A stretch of DNA of 27,480 nt. Source: Acidimicrobiaceae bacterium. Lineage in GTDB: Bacteria; Actinomycetota; Acidimicrobiia; Acidimicrobiales; Ilumatobacteraceae. The notes beneath the pieces are model-generated. The model ran no database searches and was not told the origin of the DNA. It saw only the letters and a list, made by a program, of their open reading frames with translations. The position numbers and the translations under genes are program-made. The stretch is taken from NCBI GenBank assembly GCA_040383925.1, contig JBEICS010000001.1:1-27480 (forward strand), read 5' to 3'. This document shows, piece after piece, positions 1,564 to 27,480 of this stretch (position 1 is its first letter; every line of letters begins with the position of its first letter).

Positions 1564-4317
1564 GTGACCCCGCAGTCGGGCAACGAGCCCGGTGCTGACG
1601 GCGCTGTTCCGTCGGGCAGTAGCCGGTCGTTGGGTGCAGTGGCGCGCTCGCCGCGCGCCCTCATCGCCGTTTCGACAGCCGTCAACCTCGGCGCCTACTT
1701 CCTGCTGTCGAAGTTCGTCGCGGTGCGTAGTGGCGTTGCGGGCATTGCTGTCCTTGGTGTCGTCTCGGCGATCTCGAACATCTTCGCTCTGCTCGCCGAT
1801 GCGAACGTCGGCCCCGAGCTGACCCAACGGGTCGCGGCGCGCCGCCCCGGAGCAGCGGGTGACGAGGACGTGGCCGTGGTCACCAGGGCTGTCTTCCGGA
1901 TCACGGCCGTCGGGTGTGTGGGCCTGCTGGTCGTGCTCGCTGCACTGGCGCCGTGGTTGGGTTCTTGGCTCGATCTGTCGGTGTGGGCCGTGATCGCGGC
2001 TGGTGCCGCAGGTGTTGCCACCATCGCAGCGCAGCAGTGTTTCAACTACCTCAGCGGCCTCGGGGCCACGGGCCGGGTCGCGGCCGGTGGCATCGCCCGG
2101 AGCCTCGCGGTGACCGGGGTGATCGTGCTGACCATGGTGGTGCTCGACAGCTCGTTGCCCTTTGCGTACCTGTTCGGAATGGCCGCTGGAGCGGCTGCAA
2201 TGGCGGCCTTCACCGTCGGTGTGCTGCCTCGCCTTCGCGGCAGCGCACCTCGAGGCATCTACGGCGAGTTGCTCCGAGTCGGAAGCGGGATGACGGCAAC
2301 GTTGGTGGCCTACACCGGTGCCCTGTTCGCCCTGCCGCTGATGGTGCAGGCGTTGGCCGGTACCGAGACCAACGGGTTGTTCAAGGCGGCAGCGCTCGTG
2401 AGCGGCGGTCTGCTCCAGTTCCTGAACTCGACGGTGCGCTACGAGTTCTTCCCGCGGATCAGCGCCGCACCCTCGGCCGAACACGCCGACCGGGCGGTTC
2501 GTGCCGAGCTGCGGCTCCTCGTCGCTGCGATGGGCTGCATGGCGGTGGTGATGGTCGCCCTACGCATGGTCGTGTGGCCGGTGCTGTTGACGGGCGACTT
2601 CGACGGGGCTTCGGGTGTGCTGGTGTGGGTACTGGTCGGCGACCTGCTGCGGGTGTTCGTCACGGTCATCGGCTTCGGGTTGTATGCCCGTATCGGTGTC
2701 AGGTGGCTCCTCGCACTCGAGGCTGTCAACGGCGCCGCACTCGTCGCGCTGGTGTGGTTTGCCGCTGCGCACGATGCCACACCTACGGCCGTCGGCGTGG
2801 CGTACGCAGGAGCGCACCTGGTTGCGGTCGTTGCCGCTGCACTGTTCGCGTCGCGTCGACTCGTGGGTCGGCCGCTGTGGCTCGAGCTGGGTCTGCTGGC
2901 GATGTGTGCCGCCCTGGTAGCGGTCACGGCCCTTGCCTCAGACCGCTCGACCTGGCTCGGCATCGCCCTTGCGGTCGTGTCGGTCGCGGTGCTCGGGAAC
3001 CTGGTCCGCGCAGCTCGGCGGCAGGGGCGCTCGGCGCCGAACCAACCATGGGTGACGGCGGGGGCTGTTCGGTACAGCGACGTGGCACCCCGCCATGGAC
3101 TCGGCCTACGCCATGGCATCGTGCTCGGTGGCATCACGGTGCTCGGTACGGCTACCCAGCTGCGCTCCGCCGGCGGCGTCGGCCCGGCCGAGGTGCTGCT
3201 GGTGCTGTTCCTCGCCGCCACCTGGCGGGCGAGTGGCCTGGTCACGCGATGGTGGGCCCCTTCTCGAGTCACGCGAGCGCTTCTGGTGTTCGCCGTGATG
3301 TCGACAGCGGGGGCGCTGATGGGATCGCTCGTCTTCGACGAGGATCTGGTCGCCATGGTGCTGAGGCTCTCGGTGCCGGTTCTGCTGCTCGTGGTGGTGT
3401 GCTACGCGATGACCCGGCCCGATCCGGCGCGGCTGCTGAAGCCCTGGGCGCTCACTTTCGGTCTTGGCTTCCTCGCCACCCAGTCGATGCTGCTCGTCGC
3501 CAGCCGGGTCACCGGCTCGGTCGGGCCATTCGTTCCGATGTACTTCGACATCCGGTTCCAGGGCTGGACCACGAATCCGAACCAGTTGGCATTCCTGACG
3601 GCTGTTGCCTGCGGCGCGGTCCTGTTGTCGGGTATGCGGAGCGTGGTGGTTCGCGTCGCTGCCGTGGTCGCCGCGCTGGGCATCGGGGCAGCGTCGCTCA
3701 GCGATGGTTTCCGCCTGGCGTTGATGGTGGGAGTGATGGCACTGCTGTTGCTCTCGGTCACCTCGGCAGCCCGTCGAACGGCGCCGCTGGCGCGCCTGTG
3801 CTCGTGGGTCGCCATCGCCCTGGGCGGCGTCGGCGTTGCGTTGCTGTGGCCTCGGATGCTCAGCCGAGCCGAGGGTGTGGCATCGGCAGGCAACCAGGGT
3901 TCCGACCGACTGTCGCTGTGGAAGGCCTGTGTCCATGCGATCGGGCAGTCGCCGCTGACAGGCCTCGGTCCCGGGGGGCACGCGTCGCTGCCTACCGTGG
4001 CCGAGCCGATGGAGTGCCACAACTCGCTGCTCGATGTGGCGTCATCCGCGGGGCTGATCGCCGGTGCGGTGTTCGTGCTGCTGATCGTCGCGCTCATCGG
4101 CCGCGCCTGGCGTCGTCTCGACCGGGTGGCGGTCTTCGTTCTGGTCCAACTGTCGGTGATGACGATGTTCGGCTATCTCCTGCGCTATCCGCCGCTGTGG
4201 TTGCTGCTGGCGCTGATCGAGGTGCGTCTCTTCCCGTGCAGGCGTCGCCAGAGCCGTGGTGGTAGCTCGTTCCGTAGCGGGGAACCCGTCCTTGCCACGC
4301 CTGGGGTCGACCGCTAG
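1564..4317 (+). CDS. Fused oligosaccharide flippase (Wzx/MOP family, N-half) and O-antigen polymerase/ligase-like protein (Wzy_C/WaaL, C-half)
   Basis: One 917-aa frame. Residues ~30-480 are polytopic with flippase-like segments (GVAGIAVLGVVSAISNIF; GLFKAAALVSG...VRYEFFPRISA; VLVWVLVGDLLRV). Residues ~510-900 carry Wzy_C/WaaL motifs (RFQGWTTNPNQLA; SDRLSLWKACVHAIGQSPLTGLGPG; CHNSLLDVASSAGLIAG). Confidence 0.8.
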   Translation: MTPQSGNEPGADGAVPSGSSRSLGAVARSPRALIAVSTAVNLGAYFLLSKFVAVRSGVAGIAVLGVVSAISNIFALLADANVGPELTQRVAARRPGAAGDEDVAVVTRAVFRITAVGCVGLLVVLAALAPWLGSWLDLSVWAVIAAGAAGVATIAAQQCFNYLSGLGATGRVAAGGIARSLAVTGVIVLTMVVLDSSLPFAYLFGMAAGAAAMAAFTVGVLPRLRGSAPRGIYGELLRVGSGMTATLVAYTGALFALPLMVQALAGTETNGLFKAAALVSGGLLQFLNSTVRYEFFPRISAAPSAEHADRAVRAELRLLVAAMGCMAVVMVALRMVVWPVLLTGDFDGASGVLVWVLVGDLLRVFVTVIGFGLYARIGVRWLLALEAVNGAALVALVWFAAAHDATPTAVGVAYAGAHLVAVVAAALFASRRLVGRPLWLELGLLAMCAALVAVTALASDRSTWLGIALAVVSVAVLGNLVRAARRQGRSAPNQPWVTAGAVRYSDVAPRHGLGLRHGIVLGGITVLGTATQLRSAGGVGPAEVLLVLFLAATWRASGLVTRWWAPSRVTRALLVFAVMSTAGALMGSLVFDEDLVAMVLRLSVPVLLLVVVCYAMTRPDPARLLKPWALTFGLGFLATQSMLLVASRVTGSVGPFVPMYFDIRFQGWTTNPNQLAFLTAVACGAVLLSGMRSVVVRVAAVVAALGIGAASLSDGFRLALMVGVMALLLLSVTSAARRTAPLARLCSWVAIALGGVGVALLWPRMLSRAEGVASAGNQGSDRLSLWKACVHAIGQSPLTGLGPGGHASLPTVAEPMECHNSLLDVASSAGLIAGAVFVLLIVALIGRAWRRLDRVAVFVLVQLSVMTMFGYLLRYPPLWLLLALIEVRLFPCRRRQSRGGSSFRSGEPVLATPGVDR

Positions 4318-5851: not shown

Positions 5852-7312
5852 GTGCCAAGTATCGATCGGAGACATGGATTGGTCGCGAGATCAGGCGACG
5901 GCGCAGGGAGCAGAGCTGCGCTCGAACATGTGGTCGAGGCTGCTGACGGATTCGGACGCGAAGCCATTGCAGCCGCTGTCGAACGCGCCGTACGTGAGGC
6001 GAGGTTCTCGGACGAACCCACCGACGCTCGTGGGCTGTTCGCCGACCTCGTGGCTCCTGGCAGGCGAGCCTTTGTACTGGTCAACCATGTCATGCATCGC
6101 CGCGACGATGAATCGCGCGACAACTTCGATGCCAAGGTCACCGACGCCGAGGTGATCGGTGCCGTCACCGATCTCGTTGCGCAGGCCACCGGTAGCCGTC
6201 GGCTGCTCGCCATCGGCAACTCACCCCTGCAGGGCTGCGATCACGCTCGTGTCGTCGAGGAGTCCGGCATGGTCGACGTGCTCGAGCGGTGGGACGGGGC
6301 CGACCGACCGGATCTGGTCGATCTGCGAGGTGTCGTGTCGACATGGAGCCGAGTGGGTGCGAAGTTGAGCGAGGAACGGCGCTCGCCCTCCGACGCGGTC
6401 GAGGTCGACCTTGGGCCACACAGCCTGCTCGAACAACTCTACGCTGGCGGCCGGATGCCCCAGTTCCGCGTAGGTGACTATGCCGCCGACGAGACCGAGA
6501 GTTACCACGCGCAGGGACGGCACGTGTACGCCGTGCACCGTCGACTGCTCGAGTCCGACCTCATTGTCAGCGTGCCCACCTTGAAGACCCACCAGAAGGT
6601 GGGTATCACCTGTGCGTTGAAGGGCACGGTCGGCGCCATCAACCTCAAGCAGTGCCTCGCCCATCACCGCCTCGGAGGCCCCGGTGAGGGGGGCGACGAG
6701 TATTCGCCCGACGGCATGTTGCGCAAGATCGCCTCACGGCTCGCCGAGCGGGCAGGGGGGCTGGGTACCGGACTGCTGGCGAACGCCGAACGGGTGGTGT
6801 CGAAGATCGCCTATCGAGGCGCCCGGTTGCCCGAGCGCTCGTTCATGGGCGGCGCCTGGAGCGGCAACGACACCGCATGGCGGATGACGCTCGACATCGC
6901 CCGCGTGCTCCGATTCGCTCGGCCCGACGGTTCGTTGGCCGACGAGCCGCAACGCCGTCACGTGGCCGTCATCGACGGGCTGATCGCTGGTGAGGGCGAG
7001 GGTCCGCTGCGACCGACCGCGCGGCACGAGGGCGTCATCATCGCGGGGACGAACCCCGTGGTGGCCGATGTGCTCGCGGCACTCGCCATGGGCTGGGATC
7101 CGCGAGCGCTGAATCTGCTCGTGAATGCCGTGGGGATCGATCAGTTCCCTGTGGTCGACATCGACGGTCTCGATGCGATGATGCTCGTCGCTGACGGCAA
7201 CGAGTTCACGATGTCGACGGCGCCGCGCCTCACCAGCAAGCCCTTCCGTCCTCCGAAGGGCTGGGCTCCTGCCGACCTGTTCCTCGGCCTCGAGGGCGGG
7301 GTATCGGTGTGA
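5852..7312 (+). CDS. DUF362 domain-containing protein
   Basis: DUF362-type motifs: VPTLKTHQKVGITCALKGTVG, VIDGLIAGEGEGP, DVLAALAMGWDP. GTGA overlap with the next gene at 7309-7312. Start position uncertain. Confidence 0.75.
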   Translation: MPSIDRRHGLVARSGDGAGSRAALEHVVEAADGFGREAIAAAVERAVREARFSDEPTDARGLFADLVAPGRRAFVLVNHVMHRRDDESRDNFDAKVTDAEVIGAVTDLVAQATGSRRLLAIGNSPLQGCDHARVVEESGMVDVLERWDGADRPDLVDLRGVVSTWSRVGAKLSEERRSPSDAVEVDLGPHSLLEQLYAGGRMPQFRVGDYAADETESYHAQGRHVYAVHRRLLESDLIVSVPTLKTHQKVGITCALKGTVGAINLKQCLAHHRLGGPGEGGDEYSPDGMLRKIASRLAERAGGLGTGLLANAERVVSKIAYRGARLPERSFMGGAWSGNDTAWRMTLDIARVLRFARPDGSLADEPQRRHVAVIDGLIAGEGEGPLRPTARHEGVIIAGTNPVVADVLAALAMGWDPRALNLLVNAVGIDQFPVVDIDGLDAMMLVADGNEFTMSTAPRLTSKPFRPPKGWAPADLFLGLEGGVSV

Positions 7313-8730
7313 GTCTGCAGGAGACGGTGTACGAGCGTTCGCCGGTGTTGGTCCAGCACGCCCTGGTGTCGATGCGCGGGGCGAACTTCCGCTTCCGGCG
7401 GTCGAACGATCGGGCCATGCGCGCAGCCTTGAGTGACCTGCTCGCTTCAGAGGCGCTGAGTGTCGACGAGCGACGCGCCCGGCGCAGTCGGGAGCTCGGC
7501 GAGTTCCTGAAGGCCGCCGTCGAATCGACGCCGTACTACCGCGAGTTGCACGCTGCGGGTCAGTTCCCTCCGGTCTGGCGCGACGACGACCCGCTGTCGG
7601 CCTTTGCGGCTGTCCCACTGCTCGACAAGGCCCGGGTTCGAGGCCATGAGGCCGACTTCTACGCGGAGGCGATCGACCCAGGGCGGACGGTGGTGGGCTT
7701 TACGAGCGGTACCACCGGCTCGCCGATGAAGATTCGGGAGACTTCGGCGTCGCTGTCGAAGCGTTTCGCGTTCGTTGCGCGCCTTCGAACGTGGGCTGGC
7801 CTGGCCGAGGTGGTCCACCCGCGCCGCGCCCAGTTCACCGGCCGGGCCATCTGCCAGGAGCGGCCACCGTTCTGGCGGCGGAACCTCGCCGACAACGCGC
7901 TCCTGTTGTCGACTGTGCACCTCTCCGAACGCGCTGCCGCAGGCTATGCCGACGCCATTGCCTCGTTCCGGCCCGTGCTGATGGACGGCTATCCGTCGGC
8001 CATGCTCGCCCTCGCCAGGCTCGCCGCGGTGCAAGGGATCGCCTTGCCGCAGGTCCCGGTTGTCATTGTCTCTGCCGAGACACTCACCCCGGAGATGCGT
8101 GCCACCATCGGGTCGGCATTCGGCGCAACGGTGTACAACCAGTACGCCGCGTCGGAACCGAGTTGCTTCTGGAGCGACTGCGAGTTCGGCAACATGCACA
8201 TCCACGAGGAGTACGGCATCTCGGAGATCCTCGACGCCTCGGGCGCCCCGGTGGCCCCCGGCGAGACCGGCGAGGTGGTGGTGACCTCACTGCTCAATCC
8301 CGCCATGCCCCTGATCCGTTACCGAACGGGCGACCTGGCTCGTCGAGGTCTCGACACGTCGTGTCCCTGCGGACGCAACCTGCCACTCGTCGCGGAGGTC
8401 CTCGGTCGCACCGACGACATCCTGTACACCCCGAGTCGCGGCTATGTCGGTCGGCTCGATCCGATCTTCAAGGGGGTCACCGGCATCATCGAGTCGCAGG
8501 TCGTCCAGGAAGATCTCCAGCACATCCGTCTGCTCGTGGTGCCCGAGCCGGGCATCTGGGGCGCTGAACCGCAGGCCAAGCTGTTGCACAACCTGCTCGC
8601 CAAGGTGGGGTCCGACCAACAGGTGACGGTGGAACTGGTCGACGAGATCCCGCGCGGCGCCAACGGGAAGTTCCGTTCGGTCATCACCAGGTGCCGCAGC
8701 GACTATCCCCTCGACCTGCAGCCCTACTGA
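7309..8730 (+). CDS. CapK-like / phenylacetate-CoA ligase family adenylate-forming enzyme
   Basis: ANL-superfamily motifs FTSGTTGSP, YAASE, PLIRYRTGD, GRTDD and NGKFRSV. N-terminus (YERSPVLVQHALVSMRG) is typical of polysaccharide-locus CapK homologues. Confidence 0.8.
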   Translation: MSLQETVYERSPVLVQHALVSMRGANFRFRRSNDRAMRAALSDLLASEALSVDERRARRSRELGEFLKAAVESTPYYRELHAAGQFPPVWRDDDPLSAFAAVPLLDKARVRGHEADFYAEAIDPGRTVVGFTSGTTGSPMKIRETSASLSKRFAFVARLRTWAGLAEVVHPRRAQFTGRAICQERPPFWRRNLADNALLLSTVHLSERAAAGYADAIASFRPVLMDGYPSAMLALARLAAVQGIALPQVPVVIVSAETLTPEMRATIGSAFGATVYNQYAASEPSCFWSDCEFGNMHIHEEYGISEILDASGAPVAPGETGEVVVTSLLNPAMPLIRYRTGDLARRGLDTSCPCGRNLPLVAEVLGRTDDILYTPSRGYVGRLDPIFKGVTGIIESQVVQEDLQHIRLLVVPEPGIWGAEPQAKLLHNLLAKVGSDQQVTVELVDEIPRGANGKFRSVITRCRSDYPLDLQPY

Positions 8731-9880: not shown

Positions 9881-9955
9881 TACGCCAGTTTCCTGGTCGG
9901 TGCTATCGCAGTGACCTGGATCGCCACGGGCGGACACCTCGAGGACGCAGTAGAG

Positions 9956-10753
9956 ATGACACCCAGAACGACTGCAGGAGAGGGCGCCACGCCGTTCGGC
10001 GACCACGCAGCAGCCCTCAGCGGTCGACATGTGATCGTGACCGGCGTCAACGGCGGGATTGGCCGCGCGGTCGCAGGTGCCTTTGCTGGTATCGGCGCCA
10101 CGATCATCGGAATGGACCGAACTCCAGAGCTTGCGAGGGAGGCGGTCGAGCATCTACCCGCCCACGGCGGGAAGCAGCACGCATCGACCGATGTCGACCT
10201 CTCAGATCCGGATGCAATCACCGCCGCTCTGACTCAAGTCAGGCGGATCTCGAAGGACATCGCTGCGCTGGTCAACGTCGCCGGTTACGCAGCCGACGCT
10301 GTGGCATTGATGGTCACGCAAGATTCACTTCGCACCCACTTCCAGGTGAACTTCAGCAGTGCTGTCCAGATCTCACAATTCGTCGCTCGCCTGATGGTCC
10401 GGACCGGTGGAGGTTCCATCGTCAGCGTTTCCAGCGTGACCGGCCTGGATGGCAACCCTGGGCAGCTGGCGTACGGTGCCTCCAAAGCCGCTCTCAACAA
10501 CTCCACCCGGATCCTTTCAATGGAGCTTGCCGCTCAAGGGGTCCGAGTGAACGCAGTCGCACCTGGTATCGTCAACACGCCCATGACACGATCACTCTCT
10601 GAGGATGCCCGTGCACGCCTCGTCGACCGTGTGGCCATGGGAAGAATGGCGGAGCCAGACGAAGTAGCGTCAGTCGTCCTCTGGCTGGCCAGCCCGGCCG
10701 CATCGTTCGTCACAGGACAAGTGGTCCGAGTCGATGGCGGGATGTCGGCGTGA
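9956..10753 (+). CDS. Classical SDR oxidoreductase (FabG-like), copy 1
   Basis: [18 protein letters not shown]...YGASK, NAVAPG. ATG 9956 has GAGGA upstream; GTG 9911 is an alternative start. Confidence 0.9.
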
Positions 10754-11508
10754 TGCCGGACCGTCTGCTTCGGGGTGAGAACATCCTGGTTACCGGTGCC
10801 AATCGCGGCATCGGTTGGGCTGTGTGTCAAGTGCTCGCAGCCAACGGCGCTAACGTGATAGCAACCAGTCGAACCATGGATCGCGAGTTCGAAGACAAAC
10901 TCGCTGAACTCGCCGCAACCCATGACGTATTCATACGCCGAGAACATCTCGCGCTTGATGACCCGCAGAGTATCAGAGCGGTGCTGGATGGCGCACGAAA
11001 GGTCGAGCCCCCGCTATCCGGTCTCGTTAACAACGCCGGGGTGACATACAACGCATTGTTTCAACTGTCCCCCATGGTTGCGGTACGGGAAGTGTTCGAA
11101 GTCAATTTCTTCGGACTTATGACTCTGATGCAGGGGGCCGCCAAATTGATGGCCCGCCACAAGCGGGGCAGCATTGTCAATATCTCCTCCACTGCAGCCA
11201 TCGATGCCAACCCAGGGCGGTCGGTGTACGGCGCCTCGAAGGCTGCCGTGCTGACCCTCAGCAAGTCCGCTGCTCGGGAACTGGCACCGTTGGGCGTGCG
11301 AGTCAACGTCGTGGCCCCTGGGTTGACGGACACAGAGATGCTCAGCAGCATGACCGACGACGTCATCGCCGAGGTCGAGGCGGCCACGGATATGGCACGG
11401 CGGGGTCGGCCGGCAGAGGTCGCAGAAGCGGTCGCTTTCCTAGTGTCACCGCTGGCTTCGTACGTCACAGGGCAAGTCATCCGGGTCGACGGGGGGTTGA
11501 GAGCGTGA
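10750..11508 (+). CDS. Classical SDR oxidoreductase (FabG-like), copy 2
   Basis: [18 protein letters not shown]...YGASK, NVVAPG. GTGA overlaps at both ends. Confidence 0.9.
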
Positions 11509-12347
11509 TCGATGCGGATGAGCAGTTGAGCGATCAGCAGGCCCTAGCGCGTCTCGCCTCGCGAGCGCGATGCTCGGTGTTGCGGCTGGGCCACGCTGCC
11601 GGAGGAACCGGAGCCCACTACGGGCCCGCTCTGTCCCTCGTCGAAGTGATGACTGCGATCTACTCCATGGCGCGTGTAGCCCCAGGTGTGGGGACGGATC
11701 TGGAGCGCGATCGGGTAATCCTGAGCAAAGGGCACGGGAGCTTGGCGCTATATACGGTGCTTCACGAATTCGGTCACATTCCGGACGATGTGCTGGAGAC
11801 CGCGGAGCTCGACGGCACCCGACTACCTGGTCAGCCGATCTGCGATCGTGAGTTAGGCATCGAGTTCTCGAGCGGCAGTCTCGGCATGGGACTTGGGTAT
11901 GGTGTGGGACTAGCGCTCTCCGCTCGGATGATGCAGTCCGGTCGCCGGATCTTTGTCGTCATGGGCGACGGTGAGACCAATGAAGGGTCCGTCTGGGAGG
12001 CCGCGATGGCCGCCACCCACTTCGGTCTTGGATCCATCACGGCAGTCATCGACGTGAATGACCTGCAGAGTGATGGAGCGACGAGCGACATCATGTCCTT
12101 TGACCATGCCGCTGGCTGGGCCGGCTTCGGCTGGGAGGTCATCGAGGTTGATGGGCATTCGATCCCGGCCCTCCAAGCGGCAATTGCTCAGAAGCCGTCC
12201 GGGCGTCCGCGGTGCATTCTCGCGCGCACCGTCAAGGGTAAGGGGATCTCCTTCATGGAGGCCGTCCCCGAGTGGCACCATGGCCGGCTCACCGAGCCTC
12301 AGTACGCCGAAGCGCACGATGAGTTGCGTGGCGGTGAGCCTCGATGA
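11505..12347 (+). CDS. Transketolase-like ThDP enzyme, N-terminal (PP-binding) subunit
   Basis: [26 protein letters not shown], ThDP motif GDGETNEG...[21 protein letters not shown]. Confidence 0.9.
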
Positions 12348-13336
12348 CAAACCTTCCCAACCCCCGCGGCCTGTCGCGATTGGGGCCGCGGGGCACGTTC
12401 GGTACTGCCTTGTTGGCCGCCGCCGAACTCAACCCCAGGGTCGTTGGTGTCACCGCTGACCTAGCTATCACGGCTGGGCTCGAGCGGTTCCGGGTGAAGT
12501 ATCCGGAGAGGCTCCTGAACGTCGGCATCGCCGAGCAAAACCTCGTGGGGATCGCCGCAGGTCTCGCAGAGGACGGATGGCAACCGTTCGCTGCGACCTT
12601 CGCCAACTTTGCAGCGATGCGCAGCAATGAATTCGTGCGACACCACCTCGGTTACATGAGGCAGAAGGTCTCAGTGGTTGGAATCGGCGCCGGATTTGCG
12701 ATGGGTCAGTTCGGCACCACCCACTACTCGCTAGAGGATGTCTCGGCGCTTCGAGCGATTCCGAACCTCACGATCCTGAGCCCCGGAGACTGCACAGAGG
12801 TGTTTCAGGCCGTGCTGGCGCTCGCCAACGATCCACAACCGTGCTATCTGCGCCTGAGTGGAGCCCCATCCATGCGACCCGTGGATCAGAGCGACACCTC
12901 CTTCCAAATCGGGAGAGCGAGGGTGCTGTCGACCGGCAGCGATGTCACCATCGTCGGCACTGGCAGCATGCTCAGCGTTGCGGCAGGTGCTGCTGGCATT
13001 TTGCAGGAGCGGGGCATCTCGGTGGGCGTGGTGAACGTCCACACAATCAAGCCGTTGGACGAAGACGCGATTCGTGGCTTGATTGGGAGCACGGGCGCAG
13101 TGGTGACGGTGGAGGAGCATTCGATCCTGGGTGGGCTCGGGGCCGCGGTGGCCGAGATCCTCTCTGCGGAAGCAGGCTCGCCACCGCTGCGCCGAATCGG
13201 CGTGCCCGACCGGTTCCCCAAAGTCGGGTCCTATGATTTCGTGCTCAAGCAGTGCGGCCTCACAGACCTGTTGGTTGCCGACGAAGTCGGGGACTGGATC
13301 AGTCGACACCGGCGCGCAGCCGCTGCCACCACTTGA
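12344..13336 (+). CDS. Transketolase-like ThDP enzyme, C-terminal (PYR + C) subunit
   Basis: NVGIAEQNLVGIAAGLA, GTTHYSLED..LRAIPNL, HTIKPLD, VTVEEHSILGGLG. ATGA overlap at 12344. Confidence 0.9.
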   Translation: MTNLPNPRGLSRLGPRGTFGTALLAAAELNPRVVGVTADLAITAGLERFRVKYPERLLNVGIAEQNLVGIAAGLAEDGWQPFAATFANFAAMRSNEFVRHHLGYMRQKVSVVGIGAGFAMGQFGTTHYSLEDVSALRAIPNLTILSPGDCTEVFQAVLALANDPQPCYLRLSGAPSMRPVDQSDTSFQIGRARVLSTGSDVTIVGTGSMLSVAAGAAGILQERGISVGVVNVHTIKPLDEDAIRGLIGSTGAVVTVEEHSILGGLGAAVAEILSAEAGSPPLRRIGVPDRFPKVGSYDFVLKQCGLTDLLVADEVGDWISRHRRAAAATT

Positions 13337-13379: not shown

Positions 13380-13625
13380 ATGACCAACGAAGAAGCTCTC
13401 AAGAAGGCCTTCTGTGAGGGACTAGGGGTCAACGAGGACGAGATTGATTGGGGTACCCTTCAATACCGTGGAATCGAACAATGGGACTCTGTGGCTCACA
13501 TGCAGGTGGTGGCTGAGATTGAAGATGCCTTTGACATCATGATGGACATCGATGACGTGATTGCCATGTCAGACTTCAAGGCCACCAAAGAGATCCTTCA
13601 GAAGTATGACGTGAGATTTCCCTGA
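13380..13625 (+). CDS. Acyl carrier protein
   Basis: 81 aa, acidic. WDSVAHM contains the phosphopantetheine Ser. Strong SD AGGAGA before ATG 13380; the ORF track's longer start (13131) overlaps the upstream gene. Confidence 0.9.
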   Translation: MTNEEALKKAFCEGLGVNEDEIDWGTLQYRGIEQWDSVAHMQVVAEIEDAFDIMMDIDDVIAMSDFKATKEILQKYDVRFP

Positions 13626-13626
13626 C

Positions 13627-15003
13627 ATGCTTCTGGATGGTCGCGCCGGAACGGACATCATCCTCATCGAGGCCTCGTCTGGCGCCACCATCACCGTCAA
13701 CGACGTACGGGTCAGAGCGACTGAGGTCGCTGGAGGGGTCTCGTCGCTCACCTTCCTGGTTGCCGATGCCTCTATCGACTCGTGGCTCACGGGTCTCGCC
13801 CTGCTTGAGGCTCGCTCGGCCTTCGCCTTGATCGACCCCAGCATGGGCCACGCCGCAATGCTTGCACTCGTCGAGCGTTACCAGCCTGACCGGATTATCG
13901 ATCCGGCGGGCGCGCTGGTCACCGGCGGCAGGGAGTGGAGCCGGGGGCGCCTCGCCACCAGGACCCACCCTGACTTGGCAGTCCTCCTGACGACATCGGG
14001 CACCACTGGCAGTCCTCGATTCGTACGGCTCTCCTCTGACAACATAGTTTGCAATGCTCGCCAAATCGCCCAGGCGCTCTCTCTCAGTCCAGATGACCGT
14101 TCGGTGACGACGATGCCGCTCGTCTATTCGTTCGGACTCTCGCTGCTCACGTCGCATGCAGTCTCGGGTGGTGCGCTGATCGTCACCGACCGCAGCGTGA
14201 TTGAGTCCGGCTTCTGGGAGGACATCGATCGTTACCGCGTAACCACGATGGCTGGCGTGCCTGTGACCTACAAGATGCTTCGACGCCTCGGCTTCGCCGA
14301 CCGCGCGCCCTCGGTGCGCACAATGATCCAGGCTGGCGGCCGCCTCGACTCGGAACTGATCTCGCACTTCCACGACATCATGGAGGCGCGAGACGGGCGA
14401 TTCTTTGTGATGTACGGCCAGACGGAGGCCTCGCCGCGGATATCGGTGCTTCCACATTCGATGCTTCCCGCCAAACTTGGCTCTGTCGGCCTTCCATTGG
14501 CCGGTGGCCGTTTGTTCATCCTTGATGCTGACGATCGCGAGGTCCCGGAGATGACACGGGGCCGCGTCATGTACCAAGGCCCGAACGTCATGATGGGCTA
14601 TGCCGATAGCTCGGATGACGTTGCGCTCGGCGACGTGTACGGCGATGTTCTCGACACAGGTGACGAGGGCTACCTTGACGAGGACGGTTGCCTCTACATC
14701 TCAGGTCGCACGAAGCGAATCTGCAAGCTTTCAGGAGTTCGAATCTCGCTGGAGGAGGTCGAGTCGATGGCATCTGTTCTGGTCCCCGAGGCTGCCGACG
14801 TGGCCGCCTACAGCCCTGGAGACGATACTCTCGTCTTGGTGGTCGAAGGCGCGCGAATCGGTGACGATGAGGTTCGTCGGACGATTGCGAACAGGCTGAA
14901 GGTCCCACCGAAGTTGGTCACGGTCTGCGCTCGAGAGTCTTTGCCTCGACTCGCCAACGGCAAGATCGACTACAGGACCCTGCAGTCGGAGCACGACACG
15001 TGA
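13627..15003 (+). CDS. Stand-alone AMP-forming acyl-CoA/acyl-ACP ligase (ANL family)
   Basis: LLTTSGTTGSPR (P-loop), YGQTEA, DTGD, ISGRTKR, LANGKID (catalytic Lys). Confidence 0.85.
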   Translation: MLLDGRAGTDIILIEASSGATITVNDVRVRATEVAGGVSSLTFLVADASIDSWLTGLALLEARSAFALIDPSMGHAAMLALVERYQPDRIIDPAGALVTGGREWSRGRLATRTHPDLAVLLTTSGTTGSPRFVRLSSDNIVCNARQIAQALSLSPDDRSVTTMPLVYSFGLSLLTSHAVSGGALIVTDRSVIESGFWEDIDRYRVTTMAGVPVTYKMLRRLGFADRAPSVRTMIQAGGRLDSELISHFHDIMEARDGRFFVMYGQTEASPRISVLPHSMLPAKLGSVGLPLAGGRLFILDADDREVPEMTRGRVMYQGPNVMMGYADSSDDVALGDVYGDVLDTGDEGYLDEDGCLYISGRTKRICKLSGVRISLEEVESMASVLVPEAADVAAYSPGDDTLVLVVEGARIGDDEVRRTIANRLKVPPKLVTVCARESLPRLANGKIDYRTLQSEHDT

Positions 15004-16106
15004 GCGTCCATGCCGAGCAGGTAATGGCTGAACTCTTTGAGCGGCCCCAGTTCAGCATCGACCAGGACGAGAAGACGCATCTGATTGCAGCAGAGATGTC
15101 TCGGCTGGTGCGACACCACCGCTTCAACTGCGAATCGTATGACCGCATTTGCCGGGTGCTTGCCGTACCGGATCGTTTCGAGCATCTCGCTGAAGTGCCC
15201 TACTTGCCGGTGTCTCTGTTCAAGACTCACGAGTTGCGGAGCGTGCCAGCCGAGGACGTCTTCAAGATCATGACGTCAAGTGGTACGACAGGTCAAGCGG
15301 TGTCGAAAGTCAGCCTTGATCGCGAGACAGCAACCCTACAGTCCAAGGCCCTGAGCCGAATCATGAGACGCATCATCGGTGACCAACGGTTGCCGATGAT
15401 TATCATTGACACTCCTAATGTCATCAAGGACCGCAAGATGTTCTCAGCGCGCGGTGCCGGAATACTTGGCATGAAGCCATTCGGACGCGACCACTTCTTC
15501 GCCCTGGACGACGAAATGAGACTAGATACGGCTGGCCTCCAAACATTTCTTCGCGAGCGCAAGCCCGGACCGGTGCTCATCTTCGGATTCACGTTCATGG
15601 TGTGGAAGTACTTCCTCAACGCCCTCGCCGACGCGGGATCCACTGTGGACTTGTCAGGCGGCCTGCTCGTGCATTCAGGTGGTTGGAAGAAGCTGGTAGA
15701 TGAAGCGGTAGGAAACACCGAGTTCAAACACACTGCCGCCGAACTCACTGGGATCACACGGGTGCATAACTTTTACGGAATGGTTGAGCAGGTTGGCTCG
15801 GTCTTCCTCGAGGGGGATGACGGTTTTCTCTATCCACCGAACTTCGCTGACGTGATCATTCGCGACCCGCAGACCTGGCTTCCTGCCCAGGATGGCGACA
15901 TCGGCGTGGTCGAAGTGCTGAGCGTCCTGCCACGTTCTTACCCCGGACACGCAATCCTTACCGAGGACCTTGGGATCATCCACGGGGTTGGCGCCGCGGC
16001 AAGCGGCTGGGCGGGCAAGAAGTTAGAGATCATCGGCCGCGTGCCGCGCAGCGAGTTGCGGGGCTGCTCAGACACCCACGCTTTCGAAACCACCCGACCG
16101 GCATGA
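15000..16106 (+). CDS. luxE: LuxE-like acyl-protein synthetase
   Basis: TSSGTTG, HSGGWKK, FYGMVEQ, ILTEDLG, and C-terminal GRVPRSELRGC with a Cys where LuxE is acylated. Family-level call, not bioluminescence. Confidence 0.85.
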   Translation: MSVHAEQVMAELFERPQFSIDQDEKTHLIAAEMSRLVRHHRFNCESYDRICRVLAVPDRFEHLAEVPYLPVSLFKTHELRSVPAEDVFKIMTSSGTTGQAVSKVSLDRETATLQSKALSRIMRRIIGDQRLPMIIIDTPNVIKDRKMFSARGAGILGMKPFGRDHFFALDDEMRLDTAGLQTFLRERKPGPVLIFGFTFMVWKYFLNALADAGSTVDLSGGLLVHSGGWKKLVDEAVGNTEFKHTAAELTGITRVHNFYGMVEQVGSVFLEGDDGFLYPPNFADVIIRDPQTWLPAQDGDIGVVEVLSVLPRSYPGHAILTEDLGIIHGVGAAASGWAGKKLEIIGRVPRSELRGCSDTHAFETTRPA

Positions 16107-17326
16107 CCACAGTCACCCAGCTTGTCCCTGAGCCGTGCGCCGTGGATCTCAATGACCTCCTTGCGCGATTGACGAGCGCAGCGGCCGTGCCACCGTTCGA
16201 CTCGTCTCGGCAAGAGTTCGTGAGTGACCTGGCTCGACGATTGGGTCGCCGTTCTGCTTCGCATCCCGAGTCGCGGGCACTGGCTTACTGGATGCGCAGG
16301 GCCGAGATCACGCGAATGGCCGCTGCGTTTGCCGAGCTGGGAAGCGCACAATTGGTCCTGCAACCGCGTGGAACAGTCTTCCATGTCCCGCCGGCGAACG
16401 TGGATACGATCTTCGTGTACTCGTGGGCCATCTCGGTCCTTCTCGGCAATCGCAACATCGTGCGGATGTCCAGCCGCGCCACACATCAGTCGAATCTCAT
16501 CTTGGATGTGATCAATGAGGTCTTAGCGGACCACCCTGGCGTGGCGATGTCGAATGCGATGATCACCTACGGCCATGACGATGCAATCACTGCAACAGTG
16601 TCCCAGCGCTGTGACACCAGGGTGATCTGGGGTGGTGACGCGACCGTCAACCGCATTCGGGCAGTTGCGCTGCCGCCGCATGCCACGGAGCTTGCCTTCG
16701 CGGACCGGTTCTCCTTCGCTGCGATCTCTACAGCTGCGTACTTGGCCCTTGACAACGCAGGGCGGGATTCCCTGGCGGAGCGCTTCTTCAACGACACCTA
16801 TTTCTTCGATCAGATGGGGTGCTCGTCCGCTCGATTGCTGGTCTGGGTGGGCGCCCCCACTAGTGCGGATCACGACTTCAGGCAGCGGCTTCGTTCAATC
16901 GTCCGCAAGAAGGGTTACGACGTCCCCGCCGCCGTCGCCATCTCGAAACTGGCTCAGGCCTACAGCGGGATGATTGAGGGCGGCGCGGTCGCTGTCGACG
17001 TCCGTGACAACGCGCTCACCCTCCTTAGCGTGGAACGCTTCCCGCACACTAGAGGGCAGTTCTGCGGAGGCGGCTTTCTCTACGAACTTCAAGTTGAGAA
17101 TCTCGGTGACATCGCTGCCGACATTCGCCGTGCGGACCAGACACTCGCAGTGTTCGGCATTCCCCACGCCGAACTGCGGGACTTCGTCGACCGTCTCGCC
17201 GGACGCGGCGTTGACCGTATCGTGCCGATAGGGAGCGCACTAGAGTTCAGTCGCTACTGGGATGGATACGACCTGTTCGCCGAGTTCACCCGGAAGGTGA
17301 CAATCGATTCAGGAGGACTGCTGTGA
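16103..17326 (+). CDS. luxC: LuxC-like acyl-CoA/acyl-protein reductase
   Basis: PRGTVFHVPPANV, RNIVRMSS, IWGGDAT, FDQMGCSS (catalytic Cys motif), GVDRIVPIG...WDG. Family-level call. Confidence 0.85.
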   Translation: MTTVTQLVPEPCAVDLNDLLARLTSAAAVPPFDSSRQEFVSDLARRLGRRSASHPESRALAYWMRRAEITRMAAAFAELGSAQLVLQPRGTVFHVPPANVDTIFVYSWAISVLLGNRNIVRMSSRATHQSNLILDVINEVLADHPGVAMSNAMITYGHDDAITATVSQRCDTRVIWGGDATVNRIRAVALPPHATELAFADRFSFAAISTAAYLALDNAGRDSLAERFFNDTYFFDQMGCSSARLLVWVGAPTSADHDFRQRLRSIVRKKGYDVPAAVAISKLAQAYSGMIEGGAVAVDVRDNALTLLSVERFPHTRGQFCGGGFLYELQVENLGDIAADIRRADQTLAVFGIPHAELRDFVDRLAGRGVDRIVPIGSALEFSRYWDGYDLFAEFTRKVTIDSGGLL

Positions 17327-17994
17327 CGCCGGAGGTCGCCATCATCGGTGGCGGGGGCTACGGGCGCGAGGTACTGGAATACGCCGACGATGCTCGAGCT
17401 CACGGATGGAGTTTCCGAACGGTCGGGTTCTATGACGATGACGCCACTGTGCGAGACGGCTACTCGGGTGAGCACCCCGTTCTCGGCCCTCTCACGGCCA
17501 TAGCGCATTCATCCATACAGCACTTTGTCATTGCGCTCGGTTCCCCCGAGACACGCCGAATGGCCTCCGATCTGGTGTTCGAGGCAGGCAAGCACCTCGT
17601 GTCCCTGGTACATCCCCGCGCGTACGTCTCGCGATCTGCCTCGATCGGTGCCGGCACGATCGTGTGCCCCTTTGGCATGATCGGTGCGAACTCGACTGTT
17701 GGACGCAACGTATCGGTGAACGTCTACGGCTCAATTGGGCACGATTCGATCATCGGGCGTGACGTCGTGGTGTCGCCGTACGCAGCCATCACTGGCACGG
17801 TGAACGTCGGGGATGAGTCTTTCCTTGGCACTCATACCACCATCACGCCTGGAGTCAGCATCGGCAGCCACTCGAAGGTGCATGCTGGCTCGGTGGTGAT
17901 TCGCAGCGCCCCACCGGGCTCCCTGCTTGTAGGCGCGCCGGCGAAGGGTCGCGTGATTTTCAGAGTCCCCGATGTTCCCGCGAGCCAGCGATGA
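17323..17994 (+). CDS. NeuD/PglD-family hexapeptide-repeat sugar N/O-acyltransferase
   Basis: N-terminal IIGGGGYGREV, LVHPRAYVS, left-handed beta-helix repeats (ASIGAG, TVGRNV, SIIGRD), GHD His motif, GAPAK tail. Confidence 0.85.
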   Translation: MTPEVAIIGGGGYGREVLEYADDARAHGWSFRTVGFYDDDATVRDGYSGEHPVLGPLTAIAHSSIQHFVIALGSPETRRMASDLVFEAGKHLVSLVHPRAYVSRSASIGAGTIVCPFGMIGANSTVGRNVSVNVYGSIGHDSIIGRDVVVSPYAAITGTVNVGDESFLGTHTTITPGVSIGSHSKVHAGSVVIRSAPPGSLLVGAPAKGRVIFRVPDVPASQR

Positions 17995-18332
17995 TCAGCG
18001 ATCTCGGGGTCGGAGTCGATGTCGAGCTTGTAGGTCGTTTCACTGACCCTGACCCTCGCTTATTCACCGAGAATGAGTTGGCGCTCTGCGAGGCCGCCGG
18101 GAACCCAGCGGAAAGCCGAGCAGGTCGCTGGTGCGCCAAGGAGGCCGTGGTCAAGGCGGTGGCACGTCACGTGCTGTTGAGTCCACGGGATGTTGAGATC
18201 CTTGCCGATCAGGCAGGCCGTCCGGTGGTGCACTGGCTGCGCCCACAGCTCGACCACGTCCGCTGCGACGTCTCGATCACGCACGGGGGAGAGATCGCAG
18301 CTGCGATCGCTGCCGCCTGGCAGGTGTCGTGA
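17991..18332 (+). CDS. acpS: AcpS-type 4'-phosphopantetheinyl transferase
   Basis: GVGVDVE, LFTENE, AGRWCAKEAVVKA, VSITH; 113 aa; ATGA overlap. Confidence 0.85.
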   Translation: MISDLGVGVDVELVGRFTDPDPRLFTENELALCEAAGNPAESRAGRWCAKEAVVKAVARHVLLSPRDVEILADQAGRPVVHWLRPQLDHVRCDVSITHGGEIAAAIAAAWQVS

Positions 18333-19755: not shown

Positions 19756-19919
19756 CCGACGGCCGAACAAGCGGCTGACGTATCGAGGGGAGATTGACGC
19801 AGGGCCTTGATCGCTCTTGTCCAAGTGAGGCTCGACCCCGTAGGTTGCCTCTGGGATGCTCGTTGTCGGACCGGCAACGAGGTAGCCAAGGCTCGCTTTC
19901 TTGGCAAGGAGTGCCATCG

Positions 19920-20981
19920 ATGACTGACTCACCCGAGGTCGCTCGCATCCTCGTCACCAGCATCGGCTCGTTGGTGGGACGAGGCATCCTCGACGTCCTG
20001 GTCGGCCGCCGACAGGGCCTGCACCTCGTCGGCGGCGATGCCGATCCTGCCTCGCCTGCGTTCGCCGAATGCGACGAGTGGGTTCATCTTCCGGCCAGCA
20101 CCGACCCCGACTTCGTGCCGGCGGTCGAGCAGGCGTGCCGTCGATTCGACGTCGAACTGGTGCTTCCCGGACGCGACCCCGATGTGTTGGCCCTGGCGGC
20201 AGCCAACGACGACCCGGCCAGCCCGGTGACGGGCCCCTTCGCACCGGCGGCACTGGTGACGGCGACACGCGACAAGTGGGAGACGGCACATCTCTGTGCG
20301 CGCCTCGGGGTTCCGTTCGCTCCGACCGTGTGCACCGACGAACCGCTTGCGGCTGAACAGGCAGCCGAGTTGGTTCACGAGTGGGGGTTCCCACTCATAG
20401 CGAAGCCTCGTCGCGGCAGCGGTTCGCTCGGTGTGCGGGTGCTGCTCGACCACGGCCACCTCGACGCGTGTCTCGCCCTCGCCGACTACATCGTGCAGCC
20501 GTTCCTCGATCCACCGAGCGCTGCGTCACTGGCGATCGAGGCATCGAAGGGCGTGCCGCTGTTCTGGGAGGTGCCCGTGATCGACACCCCGGCGGTGATG
20601 GCGGTGATCGAACCCGACGGCGAGGTGCGGGGGCCGGTGTGCTGTGCCGTGACGCAGCGTCTCGGACGGGTCGAGGATGTCCGACTCGTCACCGACGAGT
20701 CCATGACCGAGTTCGCCACCGCTGCGGTGCACCGGTTCCGCGAGGCCGGATGGCGAGGTCCGCTGAATCTTCCGCTGCGGCCAGGGCCGACGGGGTGGTA
20801 CGTCATCGAGATCAACCCTCGGTTCACGGGGAGCACGTCGAGCCGTCTCCATCTCGGCTTCGACGAGGTCGGGCTCACCATCAATGCCTGGACGGGTCGA
20901 ACCGTCGTTCCGCCGGTGACGGCACCACCCGTGTCGAGGGTGCGGCGCATCCTGCACGACTTCCCGGTCAGACCGGCCTGA
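19920..20981 (+). CDS. ATP-grasp ligase (PylC / carbamoyl-phosphate-synthase-like; resembles the type found in Neisseria PglB2)
   Basis: Pre-grasp Rossmann segment (ILVTSIGSLVG...VGGDAD), RDKWET, PLIAKPRRGSGSLGV, IVQPFL, VIEINPRF. SD AAGGAG before ATG 19920. Confidence 0.8.
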   Translation: MTDSPEVARILVTSIGSLVGRGILDVLVGRRQGLHLVGGDADPASPAFAECDEWVHLPASTDPDFVPAVEQACRRFDVELVLPGRDPDVLALAAANDDPASPVTGPFAPAALVTATRDKWETAHLCARLGVPFAPTVCTDEPLAAEQAAELVHEWGFPLIAKPRRGSGSLGVRVLLDHGHLDACLALADYIVQPFLDPPSAASLAIEASKGVPLFWEVPVIDTPAVMAVIEPDGEVRGPVCCAVTQRLGRVEDVRLVTDESMTEFATAAVHRFREAGWRGPLNLPLRPGPTGWYVIEINPRFTGSTSSRLHLGFDEVGLTINAWTGRTVVPPVTAPPVSRVRRILHDFPVRPA

Positions 20982-20997
20982 GCAGCATCGCAACGCC

Positions 20998-21585
20998 TCA
21001 GTCGACGCCGAACTCGGGCATCGTGGCATGCCCCTCGGCGGAGACGCCGTCACGTCGCACCACCGCCCGGATGGTCTTCCAGATGATCTGGAGATCGAGC
21101 CGCATGGTTCGGTGATCGACGTACCACACGTCGAGGTCGAACCGCTCGTCCCACGTGGTGGCGTTCCTGCCGTTCACCTGCGCCCAACCGGTGAGGCCGG
21201 GCCGCACCTCGTGGCGACGGGCCTGATGCGCGCTGTAGCGCGGGAGGTAGGCCATCAACAGCGGGCGAGGGCCGACCAGCGACATGTCGCCGCGCACGAT
21301 GTTCCACAGCTCGGGCAGCTCGTCGAGGCTGGTGGAACGAAGGAGACGTCCGAACGAGGTGAGTCGCTCGGCATCCGGCAGCAAGTGGCCGTCGGGGCCA
21401 GTGGCCGAGGTCATCGTGCGGAACTTGTACATCGTGAACGGCCGAGCATTCCGGCCGGGCCGCTGCTGGGTGAACAGAACCGGCCGGCCGAGTTTCAGCG
21501 CGACCAGTACTGCGAGCACGGCGATGAGCGGGCTGAGAACGACCAGCGCCACAGCGCTGGCGACGATGTCGAACAGCCGCTTCAC
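20998..21585 (-). CDS. pglC: Monotopic phosphoglycosyl transferase (PglC / Bac_transf family), initiating sugar transferase
   Basis: KRLFDIV, GRPVLFTQQRPG...MYKFRTM, SLDELP (Asp-Glu dyad), GDMSLVGPRP, RPGLTGWAQVNGRN. Confidence 0.9.
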   Translation of the reverse strand: MKRLFDIVASAVALVVLSPLIAVLAVLVALKLGRPVLFTQQRPGRNARPFTMYKFRTMTSATGPDGHLLPDAERLTSFGRLLRSTSLDELPELWNIVRGDMSLVGPRPLLMAYLPRYSAHQARRHEVRPGLTGWAQVNGRNATTWDERFDLDVWYVDHRTMRLDLQIIWKTIRAVVRRDGVSAEGHATMPEFGVD

Positions 21586-21589
21586 CAGG

Positions 21590-22723
<1,134 letters not shown>

Positions 22724-23991: not shown

Positions 23992-24034
23992 TGGGGTGCT
24001 CCTCGGAACGAGAACGGGGGAGTGGTGGCGATGC

Positions 24035-27283: not shown

Positions 27284-27480
27284 CCGCCTCTGCCAGGTGT
27301 CGGTCGTTGGTGGGCGTGGCGACTCGGTGGTGGACACCCCAACAGTTCGGAAGCATAGATGCAGGTCACATTCGGCACAGGTCGTCCGGGTACCCTTCTC
27401 CACGTGTCGACGCCGCCTCCCGACGATCTCGTGGCACAACTCGTCGAGTTGAGCGAGCAGTTCGCCGCGCAGGACCAGGC

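Follow-up and report, generated by a model that had tools for sequence, protein, structure and literature searches.

A split transketolase with altered acceptor-site residues, encoded with LuxE, LuxC and acyl carrier protein genes in a bacterial surface-polysaccharide locus

Among described enzymes, the closest to the one examined here is the split transketolase (TK) of Carboxydothermus hydrogenoformans (ChTK, 6YAK/6YAJ; PMC7661550), in which one chain carries the PP domain and the other the Pyr and TKC domains. The closest described gene set lies in the flagellar region of Dickeya zeae EC1, where genes for LuxC, LuxE, a FadD-like ligase, the transketolase halves TktA and TktB, two FabG proteins, an acyl carrier protein (ACP) and an acetyltransferase are annotated as 'fatty acid biosynthesis' genes (PMC4522980). 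Here, we describe a pair, TK-N and TK-C, that has the two-chain organization of the former, with cofactor and catalytic residues in common, and is encoded among the same nine functions as the latter, at positions 11505..12347 and 12344..13336 of the plus strand of a 27,480-nucleotide stretch of DNA (the window), which is the entire 27.5-kb contig of a 63%-complete metagenome-assembled genome (MAG) of an Acidimicrobiaceae bacterium. The residues with which transketolases recognize the phosphate and the 2-hydroxyl of their acceptor are replaced in this pair and throughout its family, and relatives of the pair are linked to LuxE and LuxC genes across phyla. We consider it moderately probable that the pair is the C–C bond-forming step of a ten-gene cassette, a carboligase that would extend a LuxE/LuxC-made aldehyde by two carbons, with subsequent ketoreduction, toward an N-acyl group that is borne by ACP and destined for a 4-amino-4,6-dideoxy sugar.

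Gene sets of this kind have been noted in several flagellar contexts. Enterobacterial flagellin glycosylation islands contain related Lux, ACP, FabG and ligase genes, for which a liposugar has been suggested and a transketolase goes unmentioned (PMC4875605). The window differs from these islands and from the Dickeya region in being a surface-polysaccharide locus of the Wzy type rather than a flagellar one, and in that its enzyme belongs to a different clade, with Gln at position 100 (E. coli TktA numbering, used throughout for canonical sites). The module of the Aeromonas group II flagellin island (PMC7874193) shares the amino-sugar acylation logic of the window and comprises an ACP, a 3-oxoacyl-ACP reductase, an AMP-synthetase, LuxE and LuxC; it lists no transketolase and one reductase, whereas the window cassette adds the TK pair and a second short-chain dehydrogenase/reductase (SDR), that is, an extra C–C bond-forming step. 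The a-type flagellin glycosylation island of Pseudomonas aeruginosa PAK, considered as another carrier, was set aside, as Table 1 of PMC4020848 gives an aminotransferase, an ACP, 3-oxoacyl-ACP enzymes, a ferredoxin, an acetyltransferase and a methyltransferase, and neither a transketolase nor LuxEC. The cassette itself has been annotated before; what is new is the residue-level picture, with a family-wide loss of His461, Asp469 and Arg520, clade-specific residues at position 100, and newly acquired ones at 189, 262 and 264.

In transketolases, Arg358, Ser385, His461 and Arg520 bind the substrate phosphate, while His26, His100, His261, Asp469 and His473 contact sugar hydroxyls, with Asp469 binding the hydroxylated acceptor and selecting its stereoisomer (PMC11387542). 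Both arrays are incomplete in the window enzyme: only Arg358 of the phosphate set is the same, with Thr, Gly and Gly at the Ser385, His461 and Arg520 sites, and the hydroxyl array has Gln in place of His100 and Phe in place of Asp469. An earlier note on this DNA, aligned by eye, had called several of these replacements, and BLASTP of both subunits against E. coli K-12 TktA (L001:1645-3636:-) agrees with it. CAG at 11832-11834, within RLPGQP (ggt cag ccg), encodes Gln110 at the His100 site; TTC at 12710-12712 (cag ttc ggc) encodes Phe123 at the Asp469 site, with Gly115 at that of His461; and YLRLSG lacks the second Arg, so that the Arg520 site is Gly173. The same comparison pairs the retained His127 with His473 and Arg16 with Arg358. 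An HMMER alignment to 6YAK/6YAJ (E 2.4e-55 and 6.1e-62) gives the same residue pairing at top posterior probability, matching lqGHP with lpGQP, tHaGltvGeDGasH with GiGaGfamGqFGttH and yiRlgR with ylRlsG, and a MAFFT alignment of TktA, the window enzyme and 80 other split transketolases returns the same mapping apart from the Arg520 partner, which becomes Ala174, so that neither placement puts an Arg at this site. The MAFFT alignment also bears out the note's view that the thiamine diphosphate (ThDP) motif, the remaining His residues and the catalytic Glu are intact. His26, His66, Gly114, Leu116, Asp155, Asn185, His261, Arg358, Glu411 (the cofactor-activating residue, Glu64 of TK-C), Phe434, Phe437 and His473 are conserved, and the ThDP/Mg motif of TK-N (GDGETNEG...N) is unbroken.

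Three first-shell changes come in addition to those in the note: Ile189 to Ser (Ser188, in LQSDG), Gly262 to His (His259) and Pro264 to Arg (Arg261, near the Pro264 site), the last two in EWHHGR. Where ChTK has His100, Ile189, Gly262, His461, Asp469 and Arg520, the window enzyme thus has Gln, Ser, His, Gly, Phe and Gly. Judged from these residues, the acceptor side has clearly ceased to be a fit for a 2-hydroxy aldose phosphate.

The reading frames of TK-N (280 aa, the PP-domain subunit, with a GTG start that overlaps the stop of the upstream SDR gene) and TK-C (330 aa, the Pyr and TKC subunit) are intact and overlap each other by 4 nt, and all three Pfam domains are full length (Transketolase_N PF00456, E 1.9e-33; Transket_pyr PF02779, E 1.8e-33; Transketolase_C PF02780, E 1.4e-30). 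The NCBIfam models score far lower than their cut-offs: the two halves reach 207.8 and 209.3 bits with the best, NF004559 (cut-off 488), and 123 and 69.6 bits with TIGR00232 (cut-off 682), and TIGR00204 gives 191.7 bits (cut-off 466), the window enzyme being split, with its Asp site occupied by Phe and its Arg520/Arg478 site by Gly. AlphaFold2 (AF2) models of the single chains, where the note had proposed one of the heterotetramer, have pLDDT values of 89 and 89.8 and reproduce the fold, with 6YAJ/6YAK as the best match (TM 0.83-0.91), followed by DXPS, the synthase of 1-deoxy-D-xylulose-5-phosphate, and by human transketolase; ChTK is the best match to the window enzyme in both sequence and structure. 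As part of the favored route, and with the same moderate confidence, we predict that the two chains form an α2β2 ThDP enzyme of the transketolase fold that is catalytically complete and has a rebuilt substrate channel.

The replacements are not a peculiarity of this genome. We collected the best 120 homologs of each subunit from a collection of 5.8 billion proteins, with the C-subunit set extending down to 48% identity, and none of the 120 C-subunit homologs has His, Asp or Arg at the respective sites of His461, Asp469 and Arg520. Instead, these sequences have a small residue at the first site, Phe, Leu, Tyr or Met at the second and a non-Arg residue at the third. Of the 120 N-subunit homologs, likewise, 118 carry Gln in the place of His100, and WHH with a subsequent Arg is present in nearly all of the 120. 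Sources of the C-subunit homologs include Burkholderia, Paraburkholderia, Lelliottia, Thiodictyon, Magnetovibrio, Dormiibacterota, Bacteroidetes, Synergistaceae and Oscillospiraceae, and the closest metagenomic homologs of the window enzyme are 58-87% identical to it. The replacements are a family signature, far beyond chance, and not a one-off.

To place the family among other split transketolases, we compared the window with at least 80 GTDB species-representative loci found with generic split-TK peptide patterns, which are a sample and not a census; these contexts come from more distant relatives, of 39-51% identity. LuxE and LuxC occur within 10 kb of the split TK in 12 of the 80 sampled loci, from Pseudoduganella, Aquirufa, Pantoea, Rhizobium, Planctomycetia, Brevinematales, Selenomonadaceae, Lachnospiraceae, Oscillospiraceae and Eubacterium. 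All 12 of these enzymes lack His461, Asp469 and Arg520, as the note's claim of an altered acceptor and phosphate site would have it, and all 12 loci also contain an ACP, an AMP-ligase and an SDR, often together with an N-acyltransferase. The remaining 68 sampled loci have no lux genes in the fetched flanks, and 55 to 62 of them retain the three residues. At the His100 site, the LuxEC-linked relatives have His in 8 of 12 cases and Tyr in 3, with Leu or Ile found only in second-copy modules.

FastTree groups the LuxEC-linked enzymes with the window family in a single diverged clade of 30 rows with an SH-like support of 99, separate from the canonical split transketolases; a narrower 27-row fork that holds the LuxEC-linked enzymes has a support of 87. 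Members of the 30-row clade come from Pseudomonadota, Bacteroidota, Bacillota, Planctomycetota and Spirochaetota, with taxa intermixed as expected of a mobile cassette, and the gene order with LuxE and LuxC is conserved across at least five phyla. Of 13 cassette loci, 12 have an SDR adjoining the TK pair, the exception being Rhizobium L012, and in 11 of them it lies directly upstream of TK-N. The ACP gene directly follows TK-C in the window and in L002, L004, L005 and L010. A Rhizobium anhuiense plasmid carries the full set of ACP, ligase, LuxE and LuxC together with DegT and glycosyltransferase genes under generic PGAP names; in Pantoea formicae, DegT, methyltransferase and large glycosyltransferase genes adjoin the cassette, and the Pantoea locus L006 has an identical cassette order, again with DegT and a glycosyltransferase. 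Lux genes are absent from further clades of non-canonical split TKs (L029, L041, L042, L050, L051 and L057, as well as L013 and L015). One of them, from Rhizobium, Trueperaceae, Solibacteraceae and Neobacillus, has the motif G-I-S-S-G-M-A-Y-G-E-L-G-P-T-H-H-S, and another has I-E-A-G-M-R-F-G-S-L-G-N-T-H; both also lack His461 and Asp469.

The window gene is accessory and is not the pentose-phosphate transketolase of the cell. No close ortholog was found in 30 relatives, where the best match has 41% identity, and a canonical transketolase, full length and scoring above the TIGR00232 cut-off, is present in 16 of 20 relatives. The 63%-complete MAG of the window itself yielded no full-length transketolase, which we attribute to its incompleteness.

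The cassette consists of ten consecutive, translationally coupled plus-strand genes between approximately 9.9 and 18.3 kb, with 4-nt start/stop overlaps, in the order SDR, SDR, TK-N, TK-C, ACP, adenylating enzyme, LuxE, LuxC, N-acyltransferase and AcpS. Both SDRs are FabG-like. SDR 1 (9911..10753, +) has the Ser-Tyr-Lys catalytic residues (YGASK) and an Asp after strand β2 (GMDRT), which suggests NAD(H) as its cofactor; because its Pfam match starts at residue 40, its true start may lie some 30-40 codons downstream. SDR 2 (10750..11508, +), directly upstream of TK-N, has YGASK and NNAG motifs and a Ser-Arg pair after β2 (ATSRT) that suggests NADPH. Downstream of the TK pair lie an 81-aa ACP (13380..13625, +) with a PP-binding domain and its Ser in WDSVAHM; an AMP-forming adenylating enzyme (13627..15003, +), for which the nearest solved structures are oxalate-, malonate- and 2-succinylbenzoate-CoA ligases and β-aminoacyl-ACP synthetases; a LuxE-family acyl-protein synthetase (15000..16106, +) with a C-terminal Cys356 in ELRGC; and a LuxC-family, aldehyde-forming acyl reductase (16103..17326, +) with its Cys in DQMGCSS. 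These are followed by a left-handed β-helix N-acyltransferase of the NeuD/PglD/VioB family (17323..17994, +), with VioB, PerB and PglD as its nearest solved structures, and by an AcpS-type phosphopantetheinyl transferase (17991..18332, +), which is presumably dedicated to the cassette ACP.

The minus-strand genes beyond the cassette would supply the amino-sugar acceptor: they encode a PglC-like phosphoglycosyl transferase (20998-21585), a DegT/PglE-like aminotransferase (21590-22723), a UDP-sugar dehydrogenase (22726-24114) and a PglF-like 4,6-dehydratase (24035-25867). Between a GT4 glycosyltransferase gene and the PglC-like gene lies a plus-strand ATP-grasp/PylC-like gene (19794-20981), a second possible amide-forming activity at the locus. 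Upstream of the cassette lies a separate tailoring pair: the gene for a DUF362 protein (5852-7312) and, in translational coupling with it, that for a second and divergent AMP-binding protein (7309-8730), whose PF00501 match of 28.5 bits is slightly below the cut-off. Wzy_C (O-antigen ligase/polymerase) domains are found at residues 700-838 of a 917-aa open reading frame (ORF) at 1564-4317 and in a protein encoded by a 492-aa minus-strand ORF at 25961-27439.

The following route would account for this gene content. A short carboxylic acid, probably a dicarboxylic one, would be activated by LuxE and reduced to the aldehyde by LuxC. The TK-like enzyme would generate a ThDP-bound two-carbon (or larger) carbanion from a ketol or 2-oxo-acid donor and add it to this aldehyde, which would bear neither a 2-hydroxyl nor a phosphate, to give an α-hydroxy-ketone, and the adjacent SDR would then reduce the new ketone. 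The chain would be held as an ACP thioester, loaded by the adenylating enzyme before or after the extension, and finally moved by the VioB/PglD-like transferase to the 4-amino group of a UDP-4-amino-4,6-dideoxy-N-acetylhexosamine (HexNAc) made by the PglF/PglE-like enzymes. Since LuxE and LuxC supply an aldehyde and an SDR adjoins the TK pair, carboligation followed by ketoreduction is the most economical reading of the cassette. The acyl acceptor is suggested by the kinship of the transferase to VioB, PerB and PglD, each of which acts on the 4-amino group of 4-amino-4,6-dideoxy sugars, together with the presence of the PglF- and PglE-like genes.

The note had likewise proposed a carboligase for the aldehyde made by LuxC, and in this respect it agrees with the reading favored here and with the conserved LuxE/LuxC gene order, although its description of that aldehyde as plain and aliphatic is doubtful. 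Arg358 is invariant, a new His and Arg (WHHGR) stand on the PP-domain side, the relatives of the adenylating enzyme are ligases of the di-acid type (oxalate, malonate and succinylbenzoate), and known analogs without a transketolase make short hydroxy-acyl groups; for these reasons, a short ω-oxo-acid or ω-oxo-acyl-ACP is a more likely acceptor than a fatty aldehyde. One such TK-less analog is the tetronate route encoded by the rfbK-O genes of Vibrio cholerae O1. Another is the Aeromonas module, whose host A. piscicola AH-3 has a flagellin glycan that includes both a pseudaminic acid derivative of 376 Da and an unknown 102-Da unit (PMC7874193). By arithmetic that is ours and not from that paper, 376 Da equals Pse5Ac7Ac (316) minus acetyl (42) plus 102, and 102 Da corresponds to C4H6O3; both masses fit a dihydroxybutyryl group from the TK-less Lux/ACP module.

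Natural and engineered enzymes provide parallels for the proposed reaction. AniP/siAniP of anisomycin biosynthesis is a natural TK-type enzyme that joins a 2-oxo-acid donor to a non-phosphorylated aldehyde to form an α-hydroxy-ketone and, like the window enzyme, has lost the ligands of the phosphate and the hydroxyl, its Asp469 site being Trp and its Arg520 site Asp (PMC11387542). It differs in that it is homodimeric with a fused chain of 603 aa, has no His-rich motif and is specific for aromatic keto acids, whereas the window enzyme is split, keeps His26, His66, His261 and His473, and sits in a glycan and ACP context; for ChTK, in turn, no association with Lux, ACP or glycan genes is described. 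E. coli and Geobacillus transketolases engineered at the same positions (H100L/F, D469T/E/Y, R520Q and S385Y; PMC10787763, PMC7661550) shift toward pyruvate-type donors and non-hydroxylated or non-phosphorylated aldehydes, though with Leu, Thr and Gln where the window has Gln, Phe and Gly. In particular, H100L together with D469T allows the E. coli enzyme to use pyruvate and propanal, which is impossible for the wild type (PMC10787763). By published mutagenesis, changes of this kind open the enzyme to aldehydes that are non-phosphorylated and non-2-hydroxylated (PMC10787763, PMC11387542), in line with the carboligase proposed in the note.

The note's further suggestion of a non-ketose donor is not established. 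Gln can hydrogen-bond the C1 hydroxyl, and most LuxEC-linked relatives keep His at this site, so Gln100 does not imply a non-ketol donor. DXPS naturally has Phe at the His100 site (PMC7661550) and retains an Asp-Gly-x-Thr-His motif and the Arg phosphate ligands, both of which the window enzyme lacks. Only Leu or Ile at position 100 resemble the pyruvate-accepting H100L variant or the Phe of DXPS (PMC7661550), and by this analogy the Leu/Ile second-copy modules are better candidates for pyruvate-type donors than the window enzyme.

Several points weigh against the carboligase route as set out above. The invariant Arg358 and the new His/Arg pair indicate that the acceptor or the donor is probably still anionic, and the pocket may act otherwise than the analogy with engineered transketolases implies. 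Both SDRs have an intact Ser-Tyr-Lys set, whereas the simple scheme needs one SDR. The TK-C loop 120-127, which carries Phe123 and His127, falls below 50 pLDDT and is disordered in the AF2 monomer, so the single-chain models do not resolve the pocket and the residue mapping rests on sequence alignment, which at approximately 38-39% identity to 6YAK is safe around the anchored motifs. Acetivibrio L002, the nearest GTDB relative among the loci listed and, like the window, of the Gln/Phe type, has two TK pairs, two ACPs, SDRs, a ligase and an N-acyltransferase joined to NeuB-type nonulosonate genes, but neither LuxE nor LuxC within 10 kb; the TK-LuxEC linkage is strong but not absolute. Related and horizontally spread cassettes are moreover non-independent, such that the linkage counts overstate their statistical weight. 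The literature on this gene combination yielded mentions in genome annotations, with no biochemical or structural study and no residue-level description of this transketolase found. We know of no glycan structure from any carrier of the cassette.

A more elaborate reading, which we regard as tentative, takes the cassette as a modular chain builder that is neither a polyketide synthase nor a fatty acid synthase, in which each round would comprise conversion of a terminal carboxylate to an aldehyde by LuxE and LuxC, addition of a unit from a 2-oxo-acid or ketol donor by a TK-like enzyme with a specialized pocket, and reduction of the resulting ketone by an SDR. With a carboxylate-bearing donor of the oxaloacetate or 2-oxoglutarate type, the product could re-enter another round, and positions 100 and 469 would in that case serve to encode specificity for polyhydroxylated acyl chains on surface sugars, the substrate possibly being held on ACP. 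Duplicated modules provide its motivation: L002 (8456-15388), L017 (8422-15745) and L056 (5586-12990) each contain two SDR-TKN-TKC units, with an additional LuxE-LuxC in L017 and L056, and their pockets differ, with Gln, His, Tyr, Leu or Ile at position 100 and Phe, Leu or Ser at position 469. In the second copies of the TK, position 100 is Leu, Ile or His, positions 262 and 461 are Asp, and position 469 is Phe or Leu. Duplication with divergent pockets suggests modular or iterative use, and chain building would explain loci with two LuxEC sets, two SDR-TK modules of differing pocket residues, or both.

It is rather unlikely that the enzyme is instead an acyl-loading or decarboxylating enzyme resembling the E1 component of 2-oxo-acid dehydrogenases, either delivering a ThDP-bound two-carbon unit oxidatively to a carrier protein or decarboxylating a 2-oxo-acid to an aldehyde. 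Oxidative two-carbon delivery is the route to glycolyl-ACP taken by QncN/QncL and NapB/NapD. TK-like enzymes are related to E1, as a weak Pfam E1_dh match also shows, the ACP gene directly follows TK-C in the five loci named above, and L002 without LuxEC shows that an aldehyde partner is not always encoded nearby. The cassette, however, contains no lipoyl or E2 domain or other oxidant, its near-constant SDR partner suits the reduction of a ketone product, and a second source of aldehyde would be redundant with LuxEC.

Still less probable is the addition of a two-carbon branch to the 4-keto nucleotide sugar from the PglF-like dehydratase, with the Lux and ACP genes making a separate acyl group. 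Branched-chain sugars are formed by ThDP enzymes in yersiniose-type pathways, the locus does make a UDP-4-keto-6-deoxy-HexNAc, and the loss of the ligands for phosphate and 2-hydroxyl would also be in keeping with a bulky nucleotide sugar as the acceptor. Across genomes, however, the TK co-occurs with the SDR, ACP, ligase and LuxEC genes and not with any single sugar pathway, its contexts varying from NeuB-type genes in L002 to DegT and a glycosyltransferase on Rhizobium plasmids and to those of Pantoea; duplicated TK modules are hard to reconcile with one sugar branch, and ketone acceptors are unusual for the transketolase fold. That the pair is an ordinary split pentose-phosphate transketolase whose substitutions are tolerated drift is highly improbable: its fold and every cofactor and catalytic residue are intact and no full-length transketolase was recovered from the 63%-complete assembly, but three of the four phosphate-ligand or hydroxyl-selecting residues (His461, Arg520 and Asp469) are gone consistently across the family, the gene is located in a glycan operon, the transketolase that relatives use is a fused canonical one and a gene of the window type is missing from them, and the NCBIfam transketolase models score far under cut-off (208 vs 488 bits).

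If the pair is indeed a carboligase for LuxE/LuxC-made aldehydes, the family would offer natural and stable transketolase scaffolds for the non-phosphorylated, non-hydroxylated aldehydes that engineers have sought for two decades, available in several pocket versions that vary at positions 100 (Gln, His, Tyr, Leu or Ile) and 469 (Phe, Leu or Ser). A gene pair that genome annotation labels merely 'transketolase' in numerous loci for glycans, O-antigen-like structures and flagellin glycosylation, those of the plant-associated Dickeya, Pantoea and Rhizobium among them, would thereby gain a reaction, and one would expect the surface sugars of bacteria to bear a class of extended hydroxy-acyl substituents that structural glycobiology has yet to link to genes.

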